Part shown: positions 2,605 through 29,649 of the stretch, one piece after another
How positions within the stretch are numbered: position 1 is the stretch's first letter
Layout of the letters: the number at the start of each line of letters is the position of its first letter
Origin: a virus
Lineage: Duplodnaviria; Heunggongvirae; Uroviricota; Caudoviricetes
Reading direction: 5' to 3' (one strand)
Length of the DNA stretch: 41,896 bases
Virus record (IMG/VR): IMGVR_UViG_2512047041_000010
Program-made: the position numbers and the translations under genes
The notes under the pieces: generated by a model
The model's input: the letters and a program-made list of their open reading frames with translations, nothing else
Databases searched by the model: none
What the model was told of the DNA's origin: nothing

Positions 2605-3087
2605 CTATCTGGTCAAAGTGTCGTACTGTTTTTCGCAGACTCTTCCGGCTTCGGCTGCCCGGTCAGCATACTCTGCCAGTTGTCTGTTTCTCTCGAGAGA
2701 TTTGCTGAGCACGTCGGCAAGCAAAACTCCGGTGTCTGCGGCTGACGACCCAGCGCCGACAATGGCGTTATACTGCCTGAGCTGCTCACGGATGGCAAAG
2801 AGTTGTTGCTGCAACCGGCCAGCGCTAGCGGCAGCATCAAGAGCATCATTGCGCGCCTGGTCGATCCTCTGCTGAGCTTCACGTTCATTGGTCACTTTCT
2901 CCTGTTCGTAGTACTGACGAACTTTGTCTTCTTCGGCTTTGCGGTCTTCTTCCGCCTGAGCATACCCGGCATCGTACTGGCGACTGCCGTGTATATTCCA
3001 GGCAACCACTCCTGATATGACCAGAACAGCAAGCACTGCCACGATAAGAAACTGTTTCCAGTATGCTTTTACGAATGCCCAGATCAT
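2605..3087 (-). CDS. Rz-like i-spanin (inner-membrane spanin)
   Basis: 160-aa ORF with N-terminal TM segment ([18 protein letters not shown]) and coiled-coil periplasmic part; start overlaps endolysin stop; last gene of the lysis cassette. Confidence 0.7.
2613..2849 (-). CDS. Rz1-like o-spanin lipoprotein embedded in the +1 frame of Rz
   Basis: Out-of-frame ORF wholly inside Rz; signal peptide [13 protein letters not shown] with lipobox, Pro/Ser-rich mature part. Start codon choice (2849) is an inference. Confidence 0.5.
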   Translation of the reverse strand: MMLLMLPLALAGCSNNSLPSVSSSGSITPLSALGRQPQTPEFCLPTCSANLSRETDNWQSMLTGQPKPEESAKNSTTL

Positions 3088-4708: not shown

Positions 4709-7700
4709 TTAACGTTCTTCCAGAGACTGAATCCGCTCTTTTATCTTATCCATTTCTCTGCGCTGCCATGCTGCCTCGATATAGAATAAGAGATCAGGTC
4801 TGACCCCCCATCTAGATCCTGCTGGCGTTATTTCAACGCGCTCAATGATGTCTTCCATTACCATCACTGGATTATCATCCTCATCAACAATGATGCTCCC
4901 GTCATTATCAGTCAGCGGCATTTCCCTTTGGCCAGTAATGACGTCATCATATACTGCGGGATAATCGTCATAGCAAAGAAAGGCATAGCGGCATGTTGTG
5001 CTTTCTTCTTCCATGAGTCCGTGAGAAATAAGAACATCACGAAGTTGCTGCGCGATTACACCATGATGTATCCTCGCCCCTTCTTCCCCCTTTATAGCGA
5101 CAGCGTTCAGCCATTTATAAGCGATATACCTGACGTCACCCCAGGCATCCAGCAATGCTTCGTCAGGAGAGACCGGCTCTGTCTTTAATGTTCCGTCACT
5201 GGTAACCACAGGATTGGAGCCAAGATAAACTGTCGAGAACCTGTTTCCCGGACCACCAAGAGCATTTACATTATCAAGATAAGGTTTAACATCTCCGTTC
5301 TCAAAAAGATGTTCGAGTGCGTTATATACCGCGCGACGTGGAGTACTGCTTCCGGAACCATGCAACGTTATCATTGCACCATCTGCTGAAGACGTTGTTT
5401 CACCGCCGCTAACGATTAATCTCTGAGCGGTAACATCATCAGACGGTACTTTCTTCGCAATAATGGCGTAATTACCCTCAAGTTTGACTTCCGCGCGAAC
5501 TTGTCCTGATGTACCTGCATGGACAGTCAGTGACTGGACGGCAACATCATCTGTGAAATCAACGGGTACAGGAACCGTCCTCACGCCTGACGTCGACATA
5601 AAAGTAGGAAGCGTTCTGTTAGGAGTGGCTCCGTAGACAAAATCCCTTGAAACAAATTCTTCCTGTTTAATTTTCACCCTGAAACAATACAAATCAGCCG
5701 GGTGACCATCGTGAACATAAGGATATTTTCTGTTGTTATCCCCTATGCTCCATGGGTTTAGAAAGTCTTCCCCACCGAAAATGTAGTACAGCCAGTTGTC
5801 TTTGATACAAACTGAACCAACACCAACCGCAGAGTTAACTATTCCGCCCTGATAAATCTGATCAGTAACATTAACCCACTCTACATTATCCAGACTCCAC
5901 TCATTGACGTTAACTCTGGTCATAAATGTTCTTGGATAATTTCCTGCATAACGGTTATCAGGCTCTCCTCCTTCCCACTCACCAAATGCGCGCTCACTGC
6001 CAAAAATAACCAGCTCATCGCCAACTTTGGCAAAAGGAAGGTTTGAGTGATGAACATTATTTGGGAAGCGAAGAGAATTCCATGATGTACCTAAATCAGA
6101 GCTTCTGTGCAATGAACTACCGGGTTGAGTACTTAATGTCCCCCTGGTCGTCAGATACAGAATGCCATCATAATATTTTACACATGGCTCAGATGCATTC
6201 GCCTCATATTCTGCAGGTATGCGTCTGCGAACAAAGCTACCAGGAGAACCGAAAGCATCAGAGAAATAGAGTATCCCAAGCTCGCGTGGACCAATATCAC
6301 CATTATGGTAGCCAACAGCAAAACTGTTATCGCTAATCGTCGCAAAACTGTGAATCTCAGTAACAGGAGTGCTTCCGTCAACAAAAGAAGGAATAGTTCC
6401 AAGACTGGTTTTTCTCCATGGTGACGAGTGAAATGATGTGCCAAAACTCCAGTATCTACCCTCGTTATTCTGATCCACATCCTGGGTATTTTGCGTCGTA
6501 ACTGTAAAGGTATTTTTATCAATAACAGTAGTCACCGTCATATTCCCGGTAACACCTGTAACACCAGAGTTTGAGAAGTTGACAAAATCACCAGCAAATA
6601 ATCCGTGATCAGTAATGCGAATATAAGCGACTTGCTGATTTGCTGCTTTCGTTATACCACCATAAACGCGAAGGCTGCGACTCATTGGGCGATCCCACAA
6701 CTCTGCAACCTGCAGTTTATTTCCGCTCACGGTCCGCGTCTCAATTACAGCAAAAAGGCGATTTCTGACAACCCCCATACTCATGCAGTGATAGTTAACT
6801 GTGGGATAGTTTTCATGTAAATCTGTAAGCCATTCCGGCGTTGTCCAGGTCTTCCCGTCATCTCCTGAGCGAACCCATGCAACATGGAGGTTATTTACAC
6901 CATGGCGGTCTCCAGCCATAAAAGGCGCATAGATGACATTGTCATATACAAACGTTTTATCCTGCGTCCAGGCGTTGTACCACGGTGTATCTGTAATTTT
7001 AAATAACTCTCCCTGGATAAAATCTTCAGAAGCATAAAAAAGAGGCTGGCCCGGTATTCTCTCAAATAAAAAACGAGCATTTTTAAATCGACTGACATCC
7101 GGAAGAGTTGATACTTTAAAAGTAAGCCCTAATCCGTCAATTTTATAACCTGGAGATGAGGCTTCAAGGCACGCGCTTATTGCAGTGGAATCGTCATTTA
7201 TACCATCACCAACAGCTCCAAAATCTTTGGGGCTAATAGCATCACGCATTTTATCCTGGAACGTTCGGTACACAGCCCCAGAACCATACTGAATAAACCA
7301 ACCAAAACCACCAACAACCCCGGCGATTGCAGCATCGACATAATTACGCATTGAGCGATTATTTACAGCGTCCTGCTCAAATGATGGATCTGCAAGGTTA
7401 GAAATTTTGTTTTGCTTTGCATCGTAATATTTTGCAAGCAAAGATGGTTTCATCAATGCACGTCTGAACCACCCAAAACATTGCTGGATCAGCATCGTCA
7501 GGTAGTCAAAGGCATCTTCATGCACTTCGGGGAAAAATTTTCCCTGATTGCGAAGGTCTGTCTCCTGCACTACATCAAGCACACGATCTATCGTAATTCG
7601 CCATCCAGTAGCAAGCGGAGACGGAAGAACCACAGAACCGCCACTATAAGTGCCCGCCCCAGTTACCGTATAACCGGTATCCAGAACCAATTCTGTTACG

Positions 7701-7828
7701 TTCCCGTTCAGGTCAGACACCTGAACAACCAGGTCTGATTTTCTGAAAATTCGAAAAGTATACGGAAACGATGTCGTAACGCCGTTACCGGTGTATTCGT
7801 TGTGGTCAACTTCGGTTGAGACCGTCAT
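4709..7828 (-). CDS. tailspike/tail fibre with sialidase-like beta-propeller domain and C-terminal peptidase S74 intramolecular chaperone domain (putative endosialidase)
   Basis: 1039 aa. N-terminal block MTVSTEVDHNEYTGNGVTTSFPYTFRIF recognised as a phage tail-fibre anchoring domain; two perfect Asp-boxes (SGDDGKTW, SSDLGTSW) and an xRIP motif (FERIP); C-terminus (SDGTLKTEPVSPDEALLDAWGDV...ARIHHGVIAQQL) resembles the self-cleaving chaperone of endosialidases and T5 L-shaped tail fibre. Confidence 0.7.
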   Translation of the reverse strand: MTVSTEVDHNEYTGNGVTTSFPYTFRIFRKSDLVVQVSDLNGNVTELVLDTGYTVTGAGTYSGGSVVLPSPLATGWRITIDRVLDVVQETDLRNQGKFFPEVHEDAFDYLTMLIQQCFGWFRRALMKPSLLAKYYDAKQNKISNLADPSFEQDAVNNRSMRNYVDAAIAGVVGGFGWFIQYGSGAVYRTFQDKMRDAISPKDFGAVGDGINDDSTAISACLEASSPGYKIDGLGLTFKVSTLPDVSRFKNARFLFERIPGQPLFYASEDFIQGELFKITDTPWYNAWTQDKTFVYDNVIYAPFMAGDRHGVNNLHVAWVRSGDDGKTWTTPEWLTDLHENYPTVNYHCMSMGVVRNRLFAVIETRTVSGNKLQVAELWDRPMSRSLRVYGGITKAANQQVAYIRITDHGLFAGDFVNFSNSGVTGVTGNMTVTTVIDKNTFTVTTQNTQDVDQNNEGRYWSFGTSFHSSPWRKTSLGTIPSFVDGSTPVTEIHSFATISDNSFAVGYHNGDIGPRELGILYFSDAFGSPGSFVRRRIPAEYEANASEPCVKYYDGILYLTTRGTLSTQPGSSLHRSSDLGTSWNSLRFPNNVHHSNLPFAKVGDELVIFGSERAFGEWEGGEPDNRYAGNYPRTFMTRVNVNEWSLDNVEWVNVTDQIYQGGIVNSAVGVGSVCIKDNWLYYIFGGEDFLNPWSIGDNNRKYPYVHDGHPADLYCFRVKIKQEEFVSRDFVYGATPNRTLPTFMSTSGVRTVPVPVDFTDDVAVQSLTVHAGTSGQVRAEVKLEGNYAIIAKKVPSDDVTAQRLIVSGGETTSSADGAMITLHGSGSSTPRRAVYNALEHLFENGDVKPYLDNVNALGGPGNRFSTVYLGSNPVVTSDGTLKTEPVSPDEALLDAWGDVRYIAYKWLNAVAIKGEEGARIHHGVIAQQLRDVLISHGLMEEESTTCRYAFLCYDDYPAVYDDVITGQREMPLTDNDGSIIVDEDDNPVMVMEDIIERVEITPAGSRWGVRPDLLFYIEAAWQRREMDKIKERIQSLEER

Positions 7829-7931: not shown

Positions 7932-7948
7932 ATTACCTTTCAGGTAAT
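7932..7948. promoter_or_regulatory. operator-like 17-bp palindrome ATTACCTTTCAGGTAAT
   Basis: Perfect inverted repeat of the ATTACC-N5-GGTAAT family, upstream of the LexA box and the small antirepressor-like gene; same core as the site at 27053. Confidence 0.55.
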
Positions 7949-9453: not shown

Positions 9454-10086
9454 ATGAGAACAAATACAACAAGAAAAGCGATGCCATACATTATCCCAGA
9501 AGCAGATTTCGATAGAAAACTGAACATGTCTGAGAAGAACACTAGTCACACCGAAAGCTACTTAGCGAAAGGTGTGGTTGATTTCGTTCTTCCGGGATTC
9601 ACAACACCTTATGGTTATCGCCTTGTAAAATCTTGTAATGGCGATCATTACAGAATGATTACTACCAGCGATACTCCAGAAACGGTGTATGCGGTTAAGT
9701 TAATCTTTCGGGAAGATATCGTCGAAGCCAAAAGAACATGTACGCAGATCATGGTATGGCGTACGCCTAATGTTATTCATGACCGTGCTGTTCATGGTTT
9801 GCCTCAGATTTTTTTTCAGTTCTTCCTAGAGCAATATGCGATCGTTGTATCTGATGAGCAACAAACAATCGATGGGAGAAGATTCTGGGAAAGAATGATT
9901 TCTTGGGCTATAAACACCCCAGGATATAATGTATACGTTTCAGATGGCTCTGAAGAAGATAGACCTCTTAGCTTCATGACATCATGGGATGATTTCTATA
10001 GCCAGTGGGCTGATTTCTGTTGGGGCAGTGATAAAGATGTGCATACCCACAGACTACTGGTTATAAGCAAAGATAAACTGCATTAA
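9454..10086 (+). CDS. hypothetical protein, 210 aa, no recognisable domain (AT-rich moron)
   Basis: Strong SD GGGAGG 7 nt before the ATG; followed by an intrinsic terminator; lower GC than flanking structural genes; no motif I can assign. Confidence 0.6.
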   Translation: MRTNTTRKAMPYIIPEADFDRKLNMSEKNTSHTESYLAKGVVDFVLPGFTTPYGYRLVKSCNGDHYRMITTSDTPETVYAVKLIFREDIVEAKRTCTQIMVWRTPNVIHDRAVHGLPQIFFQFFLEQYAIVVSDEQQTIDGRRFWERMISWAINTPGYNVYVSDGSEEDRPLSFMTSWDDFYSQWADFCWGSDKDVHTHRLLVISKDKLH

Positions 10087-24769: not shown

Positions 24770-25066
24770 TCACTCCTGTTCACTGGCCTCTTTGGCCATC
24801 TTCAAATACTGTTCAGGGCAATGCGCCATAACGCGCTGAAACAGTTCCAGCGCCAGATTGCGTTGCCCCTCATTAAATGCCATTGCCATAGCATCCATCG
24901 GAGAGATAGCGGAAAACACCCGGCCTTTCTCCAGCACCGACCAGACAACGCGACGCCCCTGTTCACTGCTCATGACAAAGCGAATGTCATCAATTTCACG
25001 CTGCGCCATGTCACGTTGCTTACGGGCGTTTTCTTCTTTCAGTTGATCGTCTTCGTAATCTGTCAT
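24770..25066 (-). CDS. hypothetical head-assembly protein
   Basis: 98-aa ORF between portal and scaffold genes. Confidence 0.4.
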   Translation of the reverse strand: MTDYEDDQLKEENARKQRDMAQREIDDIRFVMSSEQGRRVVWSVLEKGRVFSAISPMDAMAMAFNEGQRNLALELFQRVMAHCPEQYLKMAKEASEQE

Positions 25067-26742
25067 TGTGATTGCCCACCCTGACCACTAACTGCATTCG
25101 CCATAGCTGACAACACACTCGGATCCGAAGTTTTAGCTTCGCTTAGCGTCTTGGCCCCCTGTGCCGCCGCCATCCCCATCGCCATCATTTGTTGCTGCTG
25201 TTGTTGCTGTGCCCGTTGCTGGCGAGCCTGCTCAACCTGTTCCTGCGGAACAATGACGGTTGGAGACACTCCGGACATATCAGCGAATGCATCGATCGCC
25301 TGATCAACGTTGAGTTTGTCGAGAGCTTCTGGTTTCGCTTGCGCAAGTTGACCAATGAAGTTGACCGTAGACGCCAGACTGGACAGGCCGATAGACTTCT
25401 GCGCCTGAGCCATGACGGAAATGTATTCGACCTTCAGGGGCATACCTTCCATCGCGTCAGGCGGTGGCGGCAGCATGTTTTTACGCACCATCATCGAGAA
25501 AGAGCGGTCAATGAGAGGATTAAGACATTCGTCGTTCAGACGCTCCAGAACCGGCCCCAACATCAGAAGTTTTTCTTCTTTCATTTCGATCACCGCTTCA
25601 ACAGGCATCGAGCGGGTATTGATGTTCTGCAACATCATGAACAGATCGACAAAGTAGGCGCTGTTAATGATTTGACGAGTGTCCTGAATGTCTGCCACCA
25701 AATCTGCTGTACTGGGGTTAACCAGATAAGCAGGCCTGAAACCATCCTGACCAGTAATCTGATCGATATACGTGATGTCGCCAGGAAGAAGGGAGGCACG
25801 CTGATTCTTGAGGGAAGTCGGAGCAACCATCGGCGGATTGGTGGCTTTATCAATCAACTGCGACTTGCGCTTCTGGAGAAGCTGCAATGCCTTAACAGGT
25901 CCAAGCGCCAGCATACCCGGGCATGATGATCCATAAACATCTTCGCCGTTAACTTCCCAGCGCGGAGCCATAATTGGAAACTCATCGAATCCGGACTCAC
26001 GCAACAACTTGTCGTTATCGCCACCAACCTCGTAATAAACCGATTTGAATGGCTTGTTCTTGCTATCCAGCTTCGATGTATCGCGGTCAATGTTCGGGTA
26101 AACCGAATGCATCACTTCAATCCACTTCTCGTAGGTTCCGCTTTCCCACATGCTTTTTACGGATTCGCTGACGTTATTTAGCCCGAACTCCTGAACAAGC
26201 TGACGAACAGTCATAGAGAACTTGCGAAAACAGGTGTCCACACTGCCACGAGGTGAGTTAGCCAGGTAGTAACTGCCTATCGGGAATGGCATTGTGCGAA
26301 TGATGTCCTCGTCATCCTCCAGCACTGCCATTGCACCAGTGCTGTATGTGCCGAGGCTTCCGTATAACTGCGGCAGCGACTGATAGAGATTCGACTTATT
26401 GAACATATCGTTCATGCGGTTCTGCACCGCCTCAAGCCACAACTTAACAGGGCCATAGTCCATCATTTCAGGATCTGGCGTAGCCAGGCGAAACCACGGA
26501 CGGGCGGGGCTTGTTATGCCTGACATCATGCCGCTGGCAAGAGTGCGCGCCGCCATAGTCCCGGTCGAATCAATAATGCGTGTATTGCGTCGATCGTTAC
26601 GGTTAACCTCAGAAGTCAGAAAGCGGGAACCACGCGGGTTGATGTAATCACTCAACTCGCGCCAGTGCGGCTCGAACGACTGACGCTCGCTTTCAAGTTG
26701 TGCGAACTGTTTGTTCAATCGCTCTTTAGTTGTTTCCGCCAT
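25063..26742 (-). CDS. portal (head-to-tail connector) protein
   Basis: 559-aa ORF with Gln/Ala-rich C-terminal tail; first large structural gene; recognised as podovirus-type connector. Confidence 0.7.
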   Translation of the reverse strand: MAETTKERLNKQFAQLESERQSFEPHWRELSDYINPRGSRFLTSEVNRNDRRNTRIIDSTGTMAARTLASGMMSGITSPARPWFRLATPDPEMMDYGPVKLWLEAVQNRMNDMFNKSNLYQSLPQLYGSLGTYSTGAMAVLEDDEDIIRTMPFPIGSYYLANSPRGSVDTCFRKFSMTVRQLVQEFGLNNVSESVKSMWESGTYEKWIEVMHSVYPNIDRDTSKLDSKNKPFKSVYYEVGGDNDKLLRESGFDEFPIMAPRWEVNGEDVYGSSCPGMLALGPVKALQLLQKRKSQLIDKATNPPMVAPTSLKNQRASLLPGDITYIDQITGQDGFRPAYLVNPSTADLVADIQDTRQIINSAYFVDLFMMLQNINTRSMPVEAVIEMKEEKLLMLGPVLERLNDECLNPLIDRSFSMMVRKNMLPPPPDAMEGMPLKVEYISVMAQAQKSIGLSSLASTVNFIGQLAQAKPEALDKLNVDQAIDAFADMSGVSPTVIVPQEQVEQARQQRAQQQQQQQMMAMGMAAAQGAKTLSEAKTSDPSVLSAMANAVSGQGGQSQ

Positions 26743-26756
26743 TTCAATGACTCCGG

Positions 26757-26963
26757 TTACTGACCAAGCAGCGTTTTACCGCTGGTATTAGCGGTTGATG
26801 TGTCGCCCTGAGAACCGGTAAGCAGCGTAGAACTACGACCAGCAGCAGCGCGACGGCGACGAGTTTCTTCGTCGCGGGCATCAACAACGGCGGCATCCTG
26901 CTCCTGTGGTGCTGCCTGAACTTCTGGTGTTGCAGGCACTGATGGTGAGCTACCCATGCACAT
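26757..26963 (-). CDS. hypothetical small protein
   Basis: 68-aa ORF with SD GGAGT just upstream of the portal gene. Confidence 0.35.
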   Translation of the reverse strand: MCMGSSPSVPATPEVQAAPQEQDAAVVDARDEETRRRRAAAGRSSTLLTGSQGDTSTANTSGKTLLGQ

Positions 26964-27031
26964 ATCAATGACTCCGTACGCAATTAAATTATTACCAATT
27001 TAACCACATATGATTTATTTATCGTAGATAG

Positions 27032-27069
27032 TTGACATTTAACGCACAAATTATTACCTTTCAGGTAAC
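27032..27069 (+). promoter_or_regulatory. putative promoter (-35 TTGACA) with overlapping operator ATTACCTTTCAGGTAAC
   Basis: Consensus -35 hexamer at 27032..27037; the operator (27053..27069) covers the -10/+1 region; oriented toward the tRNA. Confidence 0.5.
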
Positions 27070-27390
27070 CAAAGAGTTCATTCCGGTTACTAACCTGACT
27101 GGCTTGTCGTTAAATTGAACAGGTGGAGTGAGCTTTTATTTTGAGCAGTACGGCGTATGGCACATGCGCCGATAGCGGTCTGGATACGTTTAAGGGGCAC
27201 CCTCCCTTGCTCGGGCAAACGAACCAGGTAGCCGGAATGTGCAAGTCGAGCGGTTTTATTCCGCGCACGGGGATTCACCATCCCGGCGATTCGGTGTGAC
27301 GCCTCGGAAGAGACGAGGGTACAACGATGAGAGCATTTATGGAGCCGCGACAAAGTGTGGCGCCTTAACAGGCTAAGTGCTCTCAGCGTT

Positions 27391-27467
27391 GTGGCATTAG
27401 CTCAGTTGGACAGAGCAACCGCCTTCTAAGCGGTTGGTCGCAGGTTCGAATCCTGCATGCCACGCCA
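27391..27467 (+). tRNA. tRNA-Arg (anticodon UCU)
   Basis: 77-nt cloverleaf: acceptor GTGGCAT/ATGCCAC, anticodon stem ACCGC/GCGGT with loop CTTCTAA, T-arm GCAGG-TTCGAAT-CCTGC, encoded CCA end. Confidence 0.9.
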
Positions 27468-27510
27468 GAATCACGCCTAAGGACCGTGATGCCAGAAGTT
27501 CCAGGGGATT

Positions 27511-27551
27511 GGCGGTGATTTTCCATTGAAGGACTATCACCGCCCTTTTTA
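27511..27551 (+). terminator. rho-independent terminator after the tRNA
   Basis: GGCGGTGAT ... ATCACCGCC stem followed by CTTTTT. Confidence 0.6.
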
Positions 27552-27628
27552 CAGCAGGACGCCATTGCGATGACTTCATGCTGTAAACCAGTACAGCCAC
27601 GGAAGGCATAACTCATTGCTTCCAGTTC

Positions 27629-27652
27629 GCCCGGGTCGCCGGGCATTTTTTT
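27629..27652 (+). terminator. GC hairpin plus U-run immediately upstream of the 27664 start (terminator/attenuator)
   Basis: GCCCGG-gtcg-CCGGGC followed by ATTTTTTT, ending 12 nt before the ATG and adjacent to the SD AAGGTGAG. Confidence 0.5.
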
Positions 27653-27663
27653 AAGGTGAGATC

Positions 27664-28083
27664 ATGAAAACAATTGATATGTTGGCTAAGTATCTAAATG
27701 AATGGCCATTAAAATATTCTCGTATCGTTCAGGCTGAAGACTGCGTTTTTTATGGCGTTTTTGCTGGTAATGAAATGCATTACGAAGTAATTCAGAGTGA
27801 GGGACTGGCCGGGTTAACTCTTAGCGAAGACCATGGTACTAGCGTTACGTTCCATGACTGGATAACAGCACAACGTTATGAAATGGAAAAAGGCGATGTG
27901 TTTGATATTTCTCGATCTGTTTACGCTAAAGCAAAAAGTGATAATGATTACATGAGCGAACACTTATACAACATGAAGTTACAATGCCTGCATGCGGCGC
28001 TTATTCAGAATGGGTACTTCGATAAAACAAGTGCCATCAATATTGCGGAAGCCATCAACGCTGGATTTAATGCCATTAAGTAA
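27664..28083 (+). CDS. hypothetical protein, 139 aa (AT-rich moron, no recognisable domain)
   Basis: SD AAGGTGAG; AT-rich codon usage unlike flanking genes; opposite strand to the late operon. Confidence 0.6.
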   Translation: MKTIDMLAKYLNEWPLKYSRIVQAEDCVFYGVFAGNEMHYEVIQSEGLAGLTLSEDHGTSVTFHDWITAQRYEMEKGDVFDISRSVYAKAKSDNDYMSEHLYNMKLQCLHAALIQNGYFDKTSAINIAEAINAGFNAIK

Positions 28084-28087
28084 CACC

Positions 28088-28099
28088 GTGACATGTCAC
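28088..28099. repeat. perfect 12-bp palindrome GTGACATGTCAC (copy 2 of 3)
   Basis: Five nt after the stop of the 27664..28083 gene, immediately before a terminator hairpin. Confidence 0.8.
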
Positions 28100-28130
28100 A
28101 AACAGCCAGCCGATGAGCTGGCTTTGTTTT
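28100..28130 (+). terminator. rho-independent terminator
   Basis: AGCCAGC-cgatga-GCTGGCT followed by TTGTTTT. Confidence 0.65.
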
Positions 28131-28173
28131 ATCCTCATCAGAGGATATCAACGACATTATCCCCACCAGCGGA

Positions 28174-29649
28174 TTAAGCATAGGGATCGTAATCTGTGAT
28201 GGCCTTGCCTTGCTGGTTCTGCTGCCCGGGAATTCGCAGACGCTTCGACACAGGGAACGCAAACGTCAGCAGTAGCGCATCGCCTTTACCCGGCGAACGC
28301 CCAAGCCGCTCCTTGATATCCTCCTTCGGTTCGATAACGATTTTACCGTCCACGCGAACTTTGTACTCTGCCGCCGACAGGTCGTCTGCAGTTTCCTGGT
28401 CATCCAGCATGCCGCCCAGCCTCAGCCATGTCTTACATGAGTTGAACATCTCCCCACGCTTGTTAAGCATCTGCGGGTCAGTAGACGCGCCACCGAACGG
28501 AACAAGTTGCCATGTACGACCCCAGCCGTCACCGATTGACTTCAAACCGGTTCCGTAACCGAAGTCGATGAACACCGCGTCAGCCTGATACTGGTCTTCA
28601 AAGTCAGCGATACGCTTCGCCATAATCAGATCGTCGGTAGTCTTGTTGCCAGTCCACAGCACCTTACTGTGTAGCCCCTGCCGCAGGTATATCACAGCGT
28701 CATCAACGCCGGAGTATGCCGGGTCAACGCCGATTATCACCGGAGCATGTGCAACCTGCGCAGCGGTTACCACCCGTTTCATTGCCTCGTCAGTAAGACC
28801 GGTAGGGATAAACTGCAATTCAGATGCATCAGGGAATATGCCACGCACACGGATTTTAACGAAGTCGCTGTCTTCCCCGTAGTCATCAACCCATTTCTGC
28901 AACTGCTGTTTGTTGGTACCTTCCACCGTCCGACTGTCAATCTGCGCAGTTTTCCAGCGGTGTTTATACTTGCGGAAACATTCACGGAAACGTCCGGTAT
29001 TACGCGTCGGGTTTCCGAACGCCACCCAGATAATCTCAGTGTCTTCGTCCGTAAGCGCACCCTCAGCAACTTCCCACACCAGATCCGCAATGTTCGACGC
29101 TTCATCGAATACCACGATGATGCGTTTGCGCTCGTTGTGTAGTCCGGCGAATGCCTCAGTGTTGTGCTCAGACCAGGGGATTGCGTCAGCTCGCCACCGC
29201 TTGTCGTGCCCAGGATCATTGCTGTACATCGCAGTAGCGGTACAGGTAAACCAGTCTTTCGTGATAGCAAGGTTCGACCACTTGATAATTTCCGGCCAGG
29301 TCTTCGTTCGTAGCTGGTTGTCGGTGTTGGCGGTCACCACGACCTTACAATCCTCGCAAGTGGACATGCCCCAGTTGATCAGCATTGAGATGAATGCGGA
29401 TTTACCAATACCGTGACCAGAAGCGCGTGCCAGCATAAGCGGCTGATAGCGCGTCTCTGGATTCTGCAGGTGATCACGTATCTCTCGGAACGCATCAGCC
29501 TGCCACTGACGTGGGCCAGTAGCATGTGCCAGTTCAGTCCCCTCTTCCCCCCACGGGAACGCATAGAGGGCATAACCAAGCGGATCGTGAGTAAACCCTG
29601 CAATATCCTCGATCAACTGCTCTTCAGGAGATAACACTGTATCTGTCAC
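28174..29649 (-). CDS. terminase large subunit
   Basis: 491-aa ORF with ATPase region (GHGIGKS Walker-A-like) and C-terminal nuclease-like region; start overlaps the small-subunit stop. Confidence 0.85.
   Translation of the reverse strand: MTDTVLSPEEQLIEDIAGFTHDPLGYALYAFPWGEEGTELAHATGPRQWQADAFREIRDHLQNPETRYQPLMLARASGHGIGKSAFISMLINWGMSTCEDCKVVVTANTDNQLRTKTWPEIIKWSNLAITKDWFTCTATAMYSNDPGHDKRWRADAIPWSEHNTEAFAGLHNERKRIIVVFDEASNIADLVWEVAEGALTDEDTEIIWVAFGNPTRNTGRFRECFRKYKHRWKTAQIDSRTVEGTNKQQLQKWVDDYGEDSDFVKIRVRGIFPDASELQFIPTGLTDEAMKRVVTAAQVAHAPVIIGVDPAYSGVDDAVIYLRQGLHSKVLWTGNKTTDDLIMAKRIADFEDQYQADAVFIDFGYGTGLKSIGDGWGRTWQLVPFGGASTDPQMLNKRGEMFNSCKTWLRLGGMLDDQETADDLSAAEYKVRVDGKIVIEPKEDIKERLGRSPGKGDALLLTFAFPVSKRLRIPGQQNQQGKAITDYDPYA

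Follow-up and report, generated by a model that had tools for sequence, protein, structure and literature searches.

The question raised by positions 27032..28130 of the virus record IMGVR_UViG_2512047041_000010 is which part of a small, oppositely oriented unit among late phage genes has been conserved. The window (the whole 41,896-nucleotide (nt) stretch that was analysed) represents a temperate podophage that belongs to the genus Uetakevirus (epsilon15/phiV10 group), and the unit lies on its plus strand, opposite to the flanking terminase and gp3/portal genes. An earlier note on this DNA had described a tRNA-Arg(UCU) moron with an untranslated leader and an orphan gene of 139 amino acids (aa), and all of the features that it listed were found again: promoter, operator, ~320-nt leader free of open reading frames (ORFs), tRNA, two terminator hairpins, 139-aa ORF and final terminator (Table 1). 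As judged from its sequence, 27032..28130 forms one transcription unit under repressor control, and a modular, conserved non-coding RNA makes up its first ~590 nt, with the order domain 1, domain 2 and its cassette, tRNA slot, trailer hairpin, two terminators (T1 and T2) and the Shine-Dalgarno (SD) sequence of a cargo ORF. The conserved unit is the RNA, and neither the tRNA nor the ORF is its core.

Domain 1 is a fold of ~170 nt with four helices, a pseudoknot and ~55 invariant bases. Among 21 representatives, 96.1% of the alignment cells paired, compared with 29–47% when the partners were slid by 1–3 columns, and double (compensatory) changes occurred in 12 of 27 pairs; none of 500 shuffles reached the observed values. 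A larger set of 83 distinct sequences, gathered with a covariance model and aligned by fitting to the nested helices, gave 97.1% paired cells and compensatory changes in 14 of the 27 pairs. The pseudoknot, which had been left out of the search model, was paired in 100% of these 83 sequences and included 17 switches from C-G to A-U. The structure of domain 1 is far beyond chance, and its G.U pairs make the fold strand-specific. The suggestion of the earlier note that the leader could be a processed non-coding RNA is therefore strongly upgraded to a conserved, pseudoknotted RNA family, the processing itself being predicted; the structure that the note proposed to look for is present as a covarying fold that matched no family in Rfam.

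A protein-coding leader on either strand was rejected, as no reading frame is preserved. The leader (~27068..27390) is overlapped by short chance ORFs only, and those on the minus strand could be aligned between the window and phage mEp460 over just 26 aa. No 3-nt periodicity was detected among the variable leader columns and domain lengths of 159–188 nt are not multiples of 3, so that ORF, periodicity and length evidence agree with the earlier statement that the leader holds no ORF. Some records annotate hypothetical proteins at the GC-rich core because many representatives have an open frame there. GC content is 59% in domain 1, 39% in the 139-aa ORF and 49% in the whole window.

BLAST comparison of 26950..28180 showed 90–98% identity to the Escherichia phages HEMP4, PAS61, phiV10, TL-2011b and ZX5, while the leader alone also matched lambdoid (mEp460, cdtI, Stx2c, Stx2a) and P1/P7-like phages outside the Uetakeviruses at ~80% identity. 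A pattern scan of viral contigs found more than 120 loci, and the 150 domain 1 loci that were classed comprised 82 lambdoid (defined as domain 1 beside cI or yfdPQ-like genes), 49 Uetakevirus-like, 16 P1-like and 3 of undetermined type. The element occurred in 1839 of 5426 complete E. coli genomes (about a third), where the matches listed carried no annotation save for an adjacent tRNA, and it was absent from E. coli K-12, including prophage CPS-53. A pattern scan of genome contigs gave 79 loci, for which the covariance model supported 25 from Enterobacterales and a single 1.7-kb contig labelled Bacillota that is probably contamination; a wider taxonomic spread was rejected, since the remaining loci scored <18 bits and were chance matches. 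True members came from Kosakonia, Citrobacter, Klebsiella, Enterobacter, Kluyvera, Phytobacter, Erwinia and others, all within the Enterobacterales.

Searches of Rfam 15 (4227 models) with 26500..28600 gave no match at E<=1 other than the tRNA, a search with 27060..27395 gave nothing relevant at E<=10, and five related loci gave nothing at the element, with C4 and isrK matches elsewhere. No description of the domain 1 RNA was found in the literature on put and HK639, prophage structured RNAs, Uetakeviruses or the P1 transcriptome, nor under its core strings, and the prophage Pas sRNAs were set aside because their locus is a different one, in the late region. The leader RNA is a widespread, modular and structured RNA of which a description could not be found in Rfam or the literature searched.

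Table 1. Coordinates of the features of the unit and its surroundings in the window.
Feature	Position	Strand	Sequence or remark	Basis
Portal gene	25063..26742	minus		ORF list
gp3-like gene	26757..26963	minus		ORF list
Sigma-70 promoter	-35 27032..27037; -10 27055..27060	+	TTGACA, 17-nt spacer, TACCTT	direct reading of sequence
Operator palindrome	27054..27068	+	TTACCTTTCAGGTAA; overlaps -10	
5' leader segment	27069..27143	+	GUCGUUAAAU...GGUGGAGUG; partly conserved among Uetakeviruses	alignment
Domain 1, conserved pseudoknotted core	27144..27325	+		R1 covariance model, 155.6 bits
Helix P1	27151..27158 with 27164..27171	+		
Helix P2	27178..27183 with 27224..27229	+	encloses variable three-way arm	
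Invariant single strand	27228..27245	+	GUAGCCGGAAUGUGCAAG	
P3, variable hairpin	~27250..27264	+		
Helix P4	27270..27273 with 27281..27284	+	loop UCACCA	
Pseudoknot	27276..27279 (P4 loop) with 27293..27296	+	CACC with GGUG	
Helix P5	27302..27306 with 27314..27318	+	loop GAAGAGA	
Domain 2, 14-bp basal stem	27322..27335 with 27378..27391	+	CAACGAUGAGAGCA with UGCUCUCAGCGUUG; carries hypervariable cassette	
Hypervariable cassette	27336..27377	+		
tRNA-Arg(UCU)	27391..27467	+	encoded CCA	ARAGORN; Rfam RF00005, 73.3 bits (gathering score 29)
Trailer hairpin	27470..27490	+	AUCACG-CCUAAGGAC-CGUGAU; nearly invariant including loop	
T1, terminator-like	hairpin 27511..27544; element to 27550	+	GGCGGUGAU with AUCACCGCC, 17-nt loop, then CUUUUU	
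Hairpin M	27548..27587	+	UUUACAGCA with UGCUGUAAA; conserved interior GACGCCAUUGCGAUGAC	
Small hairpin	27601..27623	+	GGAAGGCA...UGCUUCC	predicted fold
T2, canonical intrinsic terminator	hairpin 27629..27644; element to 27652	+	GCCCGG-GUCG-CCGGGC, A, U7	
SD	27654..27659	+	AGGTGA	
139-aa ORF	27664..28083	+	ATG at 27664	ORF list
T3, terminator closing the unit	hairpin 28104..28123; element to 28130	+	-13 kcal/mol, z -3.6	terminator scan
Terminase large subunit gene	28174..29649	minus		ORF list
Operator copies	7933, 8313, 9380, 27054, 30242, 30260, 33518, 33580, 35526, 35863, 35911, 36623, 36685		TTACC-N5-GGTAA	

The occurrence of domain 1 with and without a tRNA bears directly on how the locus should be described. 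The tRNA-Arg(UCU) is genuine according to both ARAGORN (anticodon tct) and Rfam, and the unit has the attributes of a moron, with its own promoter and closing terminator T3, a position between conserved late genes and a content that varies among relatives. The tRNA followed domain 1 in 24 of 49 Uetakevirus-like loci, while no tRNA was present in 21 of these 49, and none was nearby in 79 of the 82 lambdoid loci; in phage P1 domain 1 comes after a tRNA-Ile rather than before a tRNA. Of the tRNA moron that had been proposed, the tRNA and the layout stand, but not the tRNA as the core. The last G of the domain 2 stem (G27391), which ends in GUUG-UGG, is also tRNA position +1, and in phages lacking the tRNA the same GUUGUGG opens a multi-hairpin module that is closed downstream by CCACAA-C-CCA. 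This closure, equivalent to an acceptor-like stem, discriminator base and CCA, was found in lambdoid and some Uetakevirus loci, and from the comparison of the slot it follows that tRNA-Arg occupies a position held elsewhere by tRNA-like modules. In locus L118 the module has D- and T-arms and a long insertion, and ARAGORN makes no call.

The earlier note had also assigned the tRNA to the rare AGA codon. AGA is used at 7.6 per 1000 codons in the window and accounts for 12% of phage Arg codons; with ~2 per 1000 in E. coli K-12 this would be very roughly 3–4 times the host average. The codons are concentrated in a tailspike-sized ORF at 4709..7828 (16 AGA) and an AT-rich ORF at 9454..10086 (10 of 14 Arg codons); the capsid, portal and terminase genes contain none, nor does the 139-aa ORF. 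Supplementation holds only for some genes, and any benefit of the tRNA would be gene-specific.

The 139-aa ORF belongs to PHROG 4846 (E 5e-89) and gave no Pfam match. Its 103 homologues (~100 clusters, 38–96% identity) are from Enterobacteriaceae and are all labelled 'hypothetical', and the AlphaFold2 model was poor (predicted local distance difference test 65, predicted template modelling score 0.35). The gene is accordingly AT-rich and of undefined function, as had been stated, but it is not an orphan. It was found in only four phage records, and unrelated ORFs replace it in phiV10, epsilon15, SPN1S, Klebsiella phi13.3 and EC.W1-9, with different cargo also present at the unit in Tyrion. The 139-aa ORF is a real but dispensable and swappable cargo gene.

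These observations make it highly improbable that the locus is no more than a tRNA moron whose GC-rich leader is incidental and perhaps inert, together with an orphan gene under attenuation. The promoter and terminators of its own, the location on the opposite strand between the terminase and gp3/portal genes and the AGA usage would all suit such a unit. However, the leader is the most widely conserved part, being found in three phage groups and mostly without a tRNA, its strong covariation rules out an inert spacer, and the ORF has homologues elsewhere but no conserved position. As a complete description the simple moron is refuted by this covariation and by the occurrence without a tRNA in three phage groups.

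The placement of domain 1 bears on when its transcript would be made. A consensus promoter scan had passed over the promoter of the unit, as just 3 of 6 positions of its -10 TACCTT fit, and transcription would start at ~27067..27070. The operator that overlaps the -10 is one of 13 copies of TTACC-N5-GGTAA in the window, where 0.85 would be expected and none of 100 shuffles reached 13; the copy at 7933 is identical to that at the RNA promoter. This distribution suggests that the repressor regulon is dispersed, much like the numerous C1 operators in phage P1. Several copies bunch around 35.5–36.7 kb, the site of a 194-aa ORF that is taken to be the putative repressor. The epsilon15 record annotates a repressor binding site at the equivalent operator together with an IHF site, and promoter and operator are kept in the aligned relatives from E. 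coli, Salmonella, Klebsiella and Enterobacter. The operator-controlled promoter that had been noted earlier is thus supported both by the motif copies and by the epsilon15 annotation.

In mEp460 and cdtI the element is found shortly downstream of the cI gene and cI terminator. In cdtI a promoter (TTGACA-16-CATAAT) overlapped by GATACATAATGTATC lies right after the cI terminator and 53 nt upstream of domain 1, and in mEp460 the stretch from cI to domain 1 holds TTGCA-N5-GCAA operator repeats and a promoter. For epsilon15-like and lambdoid phages in general, domain 1 is within ~40–80 nt of a promoter overlapped by the phage's own operator, and a cI-like repressor is found upstream of domain 1 in locus L069. 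In phage P1 domain 1 is located 15 nt after tRNA-Ile and ~100 nt before ban, within the C1-controlled ban operon and ~2.3 kb downstream of Pban and its C1 operators. Domain 1 is, on this comparison of sites, always in a transcript under prophage repressor control, and the operator type is that of the resident phage. From this control its transcript would be among those made first on infection or induction, and the fold and constant placement together imply a function in the first minutes after either event.

A block of ~47 nt (TAAATTATTACCAATTTAACCACATATGATTTATTT..., 26985..27031) between the gp3 start and the RNA promoter is virtually invariant in Uetakeviruses of E. coli, Salmonella, Klebsiella and Enterobacter, and is better conserved in the alignment than the flanking genes. 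The epsilon15 record annotates IHF and repressor sites at its counterpart, and the block probably serves the late gp3/portal genes as a divergent control region.

Downstream of the tRNA slot a second series of elements is conserved. The trailer hairpin follows the CCA of a tRNA or of a tRNA-like module alike (after non-tRNA modules in L077, L150 and L118); all 6 of its pairs were invariant in 10 representatives and a single loop position varied. T1 has a 9-bp stem (-21.8 kcal/mol, z -5.3) in which four pairs show compensatory changes across relatives, and was passed over by the terminator scan on account of a loop of more than 8 nt. T2 (-13.8 kcal/mol), which the terminator scan did find, is present in all relatives, has two pairs with compensatory changes and ends ~9–12 nt before the SD. 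Both have the form predicted for intrinsic terminators, a G+C-rich hairpin followed directly by a U-run, in agreement with the two consecutive terminator-like hairpins described before. Between them hairpin M (-12.8 kcal/mol, z -3.0), conserved in sequence among relatives, reuses the T1 U-tract in its 5' strand, and in the small hairpin that follows 93% of the cells pair among relatives with one-sided changes only. The trailer hairpin, T1, M, small hairpin and T2 are kept in Uetakeviruses whatever the cargo, and the same series was found in several further loci of undetermined phage type. In mEp460 a 13-bp T1-like hairpin followed by CUCUUUUU precedes the first early-left gene, and the equivalent of M is a long hairpin (-49.7 kcal/mol) that starts in the T1-like U-tract. 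T3 adjoins the 3' end of the terminase large subunit gene, where the phiV10 record annotates a terminator.

A pseudoknotted RNA placed after an early promoter and ahead of two terminators may act on the passage of these terminators. We tentatively favour the reading in which domain 1 would act in cis, in the manner of put RNA, to let RNA polymerase pass T1 and T2. Domain 1 would fold co-transcriptionally, its target being either the elongating polymerase or the transcript that carries it; T1 and T2 would then be passed by the polymerases coming from the early promoter, and the tRNA would be made together with the downstream genes. The same could apply in lambdoid relatives with no annotated N gene, in which the terminator before the early-left genes would be passed. 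RNase P cleavage at G27391 would in any case free a leader RNA of ~320 nt, and tRNA 3' processing would free the trailer. The SD and ATG of differing cargo ORFs are fused directly behind T2, and because of this fusion the cargo behind T2 would be expressed only by read-through. The three contexts (Uetakevirus-like, lambdoid and P1-like) have no protein gene in common, so that any partner would have to be a host factor such as RNA polymerase, and the annotations of mEp460 and cdtI show no N-type antiterminator gene.

The put RNAs of HK022 (putL and putR) and HK639 (putL-like) are the only precedent at this genomic position. Like domain 1, put is encoded in cis just after a repressor-controlled early promoter, with no annotated N gene and with terminators downstream; the HK639 record annotates the putL-like RNA just downstream of pL, and HK022 putL was located by its similarity to that RNA. 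Domain 1 likewise lies in sense orientation just downstream of a repressor-controlled promoter, in P1 deeper within the operon. Stem I of put and helix P1 have an identical 5-bp base, A-CGGCG...CG(U/C)CG, including a G.U wobble that has been seen at the base of put stem I by cryo-EM (PMC9378689), and HK639 put also has GGAAGAG in common with domain 1. In contrast, put is ~70 nt long, has a triplex in addition to its two stems and depends on an A9.G35 platform, whereas domain 1 comprises ~170 nt with four helices, a pseudoknot and further domains beyond. G35 of put is critical for binding the zinc-binding domain of the polymerase (PMC9378689). Membership in the put family was rejected, since the R1 model gave no match in HK022 or HK639, the G35 equivalent is variable and a 5-bp stem base alone does not amount to homology. 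The resemblance to put may serve as a lead only, and domain 1 would be a functional analogue of HK022 put or of the Bacillus EAR rather than a homologue.

Several observations weigh against antitermination in cis. Epsilon15 (L005 2549..2600), L102 and L077 are natural deletion derivatives that keep just hairpin P1 of domain 1 and yet retain T2 or both T1 and T2 together with the cargo. In EC.W1-9, L065 and L117 a second operator and promoter stand after T2, and the RNA unit looks self-contained. In L069 (3363..3375) and L023, domain 1 is followed by UGCUCUUUAACAA, a perfect boxA that matches the rrn boxA (Nus-factor site) consensus, which suggests a separate antitermination system in these loci. 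No terminator was found between domain 1 and ban in phage P1, the hypervariable cassette has no role in an antitermination model, and there is no homology to put, as neither HK022 nor HK639 is hit by the domain 1 model, and the counterpart of G35 varies in the domain 1 alignment.

Some of these loci deserve further description. In epsilon15 and L102 the deletion junction lies in the repeat GGUUCCCUUGAUGCU, common to the P2 arm and the T1 loop, and everything between the repeats has been lost, the tRNA and the T1 5' strand among it; the truncated leaders are the exact product of recombination between the P2-arm and T1-loop repeats. The wider motif common to the P2 arm and T1 loop is UCC(C/A)UUG, which takes the form UUCCCUUGAUGCU in SPN1S-type phages. 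In L069 and L023 a weak hairpin (-8.6 kcal/mol, z -1.8) stands between domain 1 and UGCUCUUUAACAA, a possible boxB-like hairpin follows, and no N-like protein was recognised downstream of the L069 element. The second operator and promoter (GTTACCTTGAAGGTAAG) of EC.W1-9 (L132 ~2700..2760), L065 and L117 precedes a different cargo ORF, and the cargo of these phages would be repressor-controlled independently of the RNA unit.

The terminators also raise the question of a riboswitch-like leader, in which domain 1 would be an aptamer whose ligand, be it a metabolite, ion, tRNA or protein, reports the state of the host, and would set the passage of T1 and T2. Conserved junctions, variable peripheral helices, a pseudoknot and a site in the 5' untranslated region before terminators are the classic signature of such elements, and the T1 loop UCC(C/A)UUG is complementary to the invariant GCAAG/GGAA strand, so that docking of the terminator loop is conceivable. 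Nevertheless we consider this unlikely, as no conserved, mutually exclusive pairing of domain 1 with T1 or T2 was found, T1 is ~190 nt downstream with a whole tRNA between, and no terminator follows domain 1 in P1 and L054. Neither an expression platform based on exclusive pairing nor a coherent set of downstream genes emerged, the latter being heterogeneous and of no common function. The one candidate anti-terminator pairing, AUCACGCC with GGCGGUGAU, is lost in L077, where T1 covaries, and the attenuation-type control that had been suggested from the hairpin before the ORF was therefore not sustained.

A second pairing within the leader has a narrower distribution. Positions 27079..27090 (CAUUCCGGUUAC) are complementary to 27228..27239 (GUAGCCGGAAUG) of the invariant strand of domain 1 over 12 bp with one G.U, and pair with them in minimum free energy and centroid folds alike. 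This complementarity is confined to phiV10-type leaders, being absent from Salmonella, Klebsiella and lambdoid members, and the predicted pairing could be a lineage-specific alternative fold.

The cassette of domain 2, which has no place in an antitermination model, invites a different explanation. The fold of domain 2 (-28 kcal/mol, z -3.6) has a basal stem that covaries in the divergent loci L120, L211, L199, L089 and L164, and at least 18 unrelated cassette types of 41–103 nt were found on otherwise near-identical scaffolds. Lambdoid phages with a scaffold of only 83% identity carry the window's cassette again, altered in ways that preserve its structure, and because the same cassette sits on different scaffolds the cassettes move independently of them. 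A 98-nt cassette is common to the Salmonella Uetakevirus SPN1S (L129) and the O157 phage Stx2a_WGPS2 (L006), occurs also in L009, and contains two T-arm-like hairpins, CUGGUUCAAUUCCAG and GGUCCGUUCGAUUCGG. Cassettes as antisense guides were rejected, since a blastn-short comparison of the 18 types with 1.9 Mb of phage loci gave only chance-level 12–17-mers.

As the main rival reading it is possible, although doubtful, that the unit is a polycistronic RNA gene yielding a stable RNA that acts in trans, with domain 1 and the cassette binding a host factor early in infection and neutralising or redirecting it. Cuts by RNase P, tRNA 3' processing and RNase III at the M duplex, together with the T1 or T2 ends, would release it; candidate targets would be RNases, other RNA-binding proteins or defence nucleases that attack tRNAs, with cassettes and tRNA-like modules as specificity elements or decoys. 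In most contexts domain 1 stands beside a natural site of processing, either a tRNA or a module of acceptor stem plus CCA: it is 15 nt from tRNA-Ile in P1, one stem from tRNA-Arg here, and next to the GUUGUGG...CCACAA-C-CCA closure in lambdoid and some Uetakevirus loci. The cassettes, of at least 18 types, are swapped without regard to the flanking phage, as would be expected under diversifying selection, and one cassette has T-arm-like hairpins. RNA units of the EC.W1-9 type end at T2 and leave the cargo its own promoter, L069 and L023 have a weakly predicted hairpin and U-rich tail after domain 1, and so information-rich a fold is typical of protein-binding or catalytic RNAs. However, neither a partner nor a target emerged, the cassettes showed antisense complementarity only at chance level in the 1.9 Mb of phage loci, and domain 1 is always in sense orientation near the start of an operon or just before a gene, which a free-standing RNA gene would not need.

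The close contact of the leader with the tRNA could also point to a processing scaffold or ribozyme, whereby domains 1 and 2 would present the tRNA or tRNA-like module for correct 5' processing, or would self-cleave so that RNA ends are set or the 5' end is shielded. Nucleotide +1 of the tRNA is part of the basal pair of domain 2, so that leader stem and acceptor stem compete at the RNase P site, the CACC:GGUG pseudoknot resembles the RCCA-GGU contact, and hairpin P1 alone survives in all deletion variants, as a 5' stabiliser would. We regard this as improbable, given that tRNAs need no such leaders, that L054, L069 and L023 have no tRNA-like neighbour and P1 has its tRNA 5' of domain 1, and that Rfam returned no ribozyme or RNase P match at E<=10. 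Some strings are presumably like parts of E. coli RNase P (M1) RNA, a superficial likeness that is unsupported by Rfam.

Comparison with other known RNAs likewise identified analogues and no relatives. EAR (eps-associated RNA) is a processive antiterminator of Bacillus that is pseudoknotted and can lie within an operon, like domain 1 in the ban operon of P1, but it is unrelated in sequence, fold and host clade and gave no Rfam match. GOLLD and ROOL are large multi-domain prophage RNAs of 500–800 nt from Firmicutes and other clades, often next to or enclosing tRNA genes. Structures of both are reported in PMC12286853. Their Rfam models did not match here, there was no sign of multimeric cages, and the domain 1 RNA belongs to Enterobacterales phages only. 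T4 species 1 and 2 and the E. coli RNAs 3'ETS-leuZ and RtT are non-tRNA RNAs that are co-transcribed with tRNAs and freed by tRNA-processing enzymes; they have no sequence relation to domain 1, do not occur at repressor-controlled early promoters and possess no comparable pseudoknotted core.

The C4 RNA of P1 and CI RNA of P4 are cut from early transcripts by RNase P and have tRNA-like ends and variable loops that set specificity, C4 being ~77–88 nt long and acting by antisense pairing to targets in its own transcript. Identity with C4/CI antisense RNA (RF01695) was rejected, as the C4 model matches elsewhere and not at the element and no cassette has a target above chance; furthermore, one cassette can be followed by different downstream regions, and one downstream region can follow different cassettes. 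Adjacent C4 and isrK matches were found on the minus strand of mEp460 (L002 1706..1894; 84 and 67 bits) and cdtI (L003 1777..1965; 68 and 60 bits), inside or beside an antirepressor-like gene of the rightward (pR) operon. In locus L077 the truncated element is followed ~200 nt downstream by a weak DicF-like match (30.5 bits), and a dicF-like region is annotated in the ban operon of P1.

In summary, this RNA sits unannotated in well-studied phages, namely directly upstream of ban in P1, in lambdoid prophages (those of the Stx2a and Stx2c phages of E. coli O157 among them) and in the epsilon15/phiV10 group, and its absence from K-12 may explain why it was overlooked. The tRNA described here is one interchangeable module of a larger RNA, and tRNA morons are to be read anew in this light. 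Domain 1 might be the core of a phage RNA class that has so far escaped recognition, made in repressor-controlled, presumably early, transcripts and binding some host machine. It would be either a third, structurally independent class that reprograms E. coli RNA polymerase or a scaffold on which exchangeable cassettes and tRNA-like modules are displayed as decoys against RNA-targeting defences of the host, a proposal that we advance with considerable reserve. If true, P1, epsilon15-like and lambdoid phages, the Stx2-converting ones included, would possess a regulatory or anti-defence layer that has stayed hidden. Modification of the polymerase would explain how phages of the SfV/mEp460 type, which have no annotated N gene, pass the early-left terminator, and would represent a new structural solution to processive antitermination; if the RNA acts in trans, the exchangeable cassette would point to a function in an arms race.

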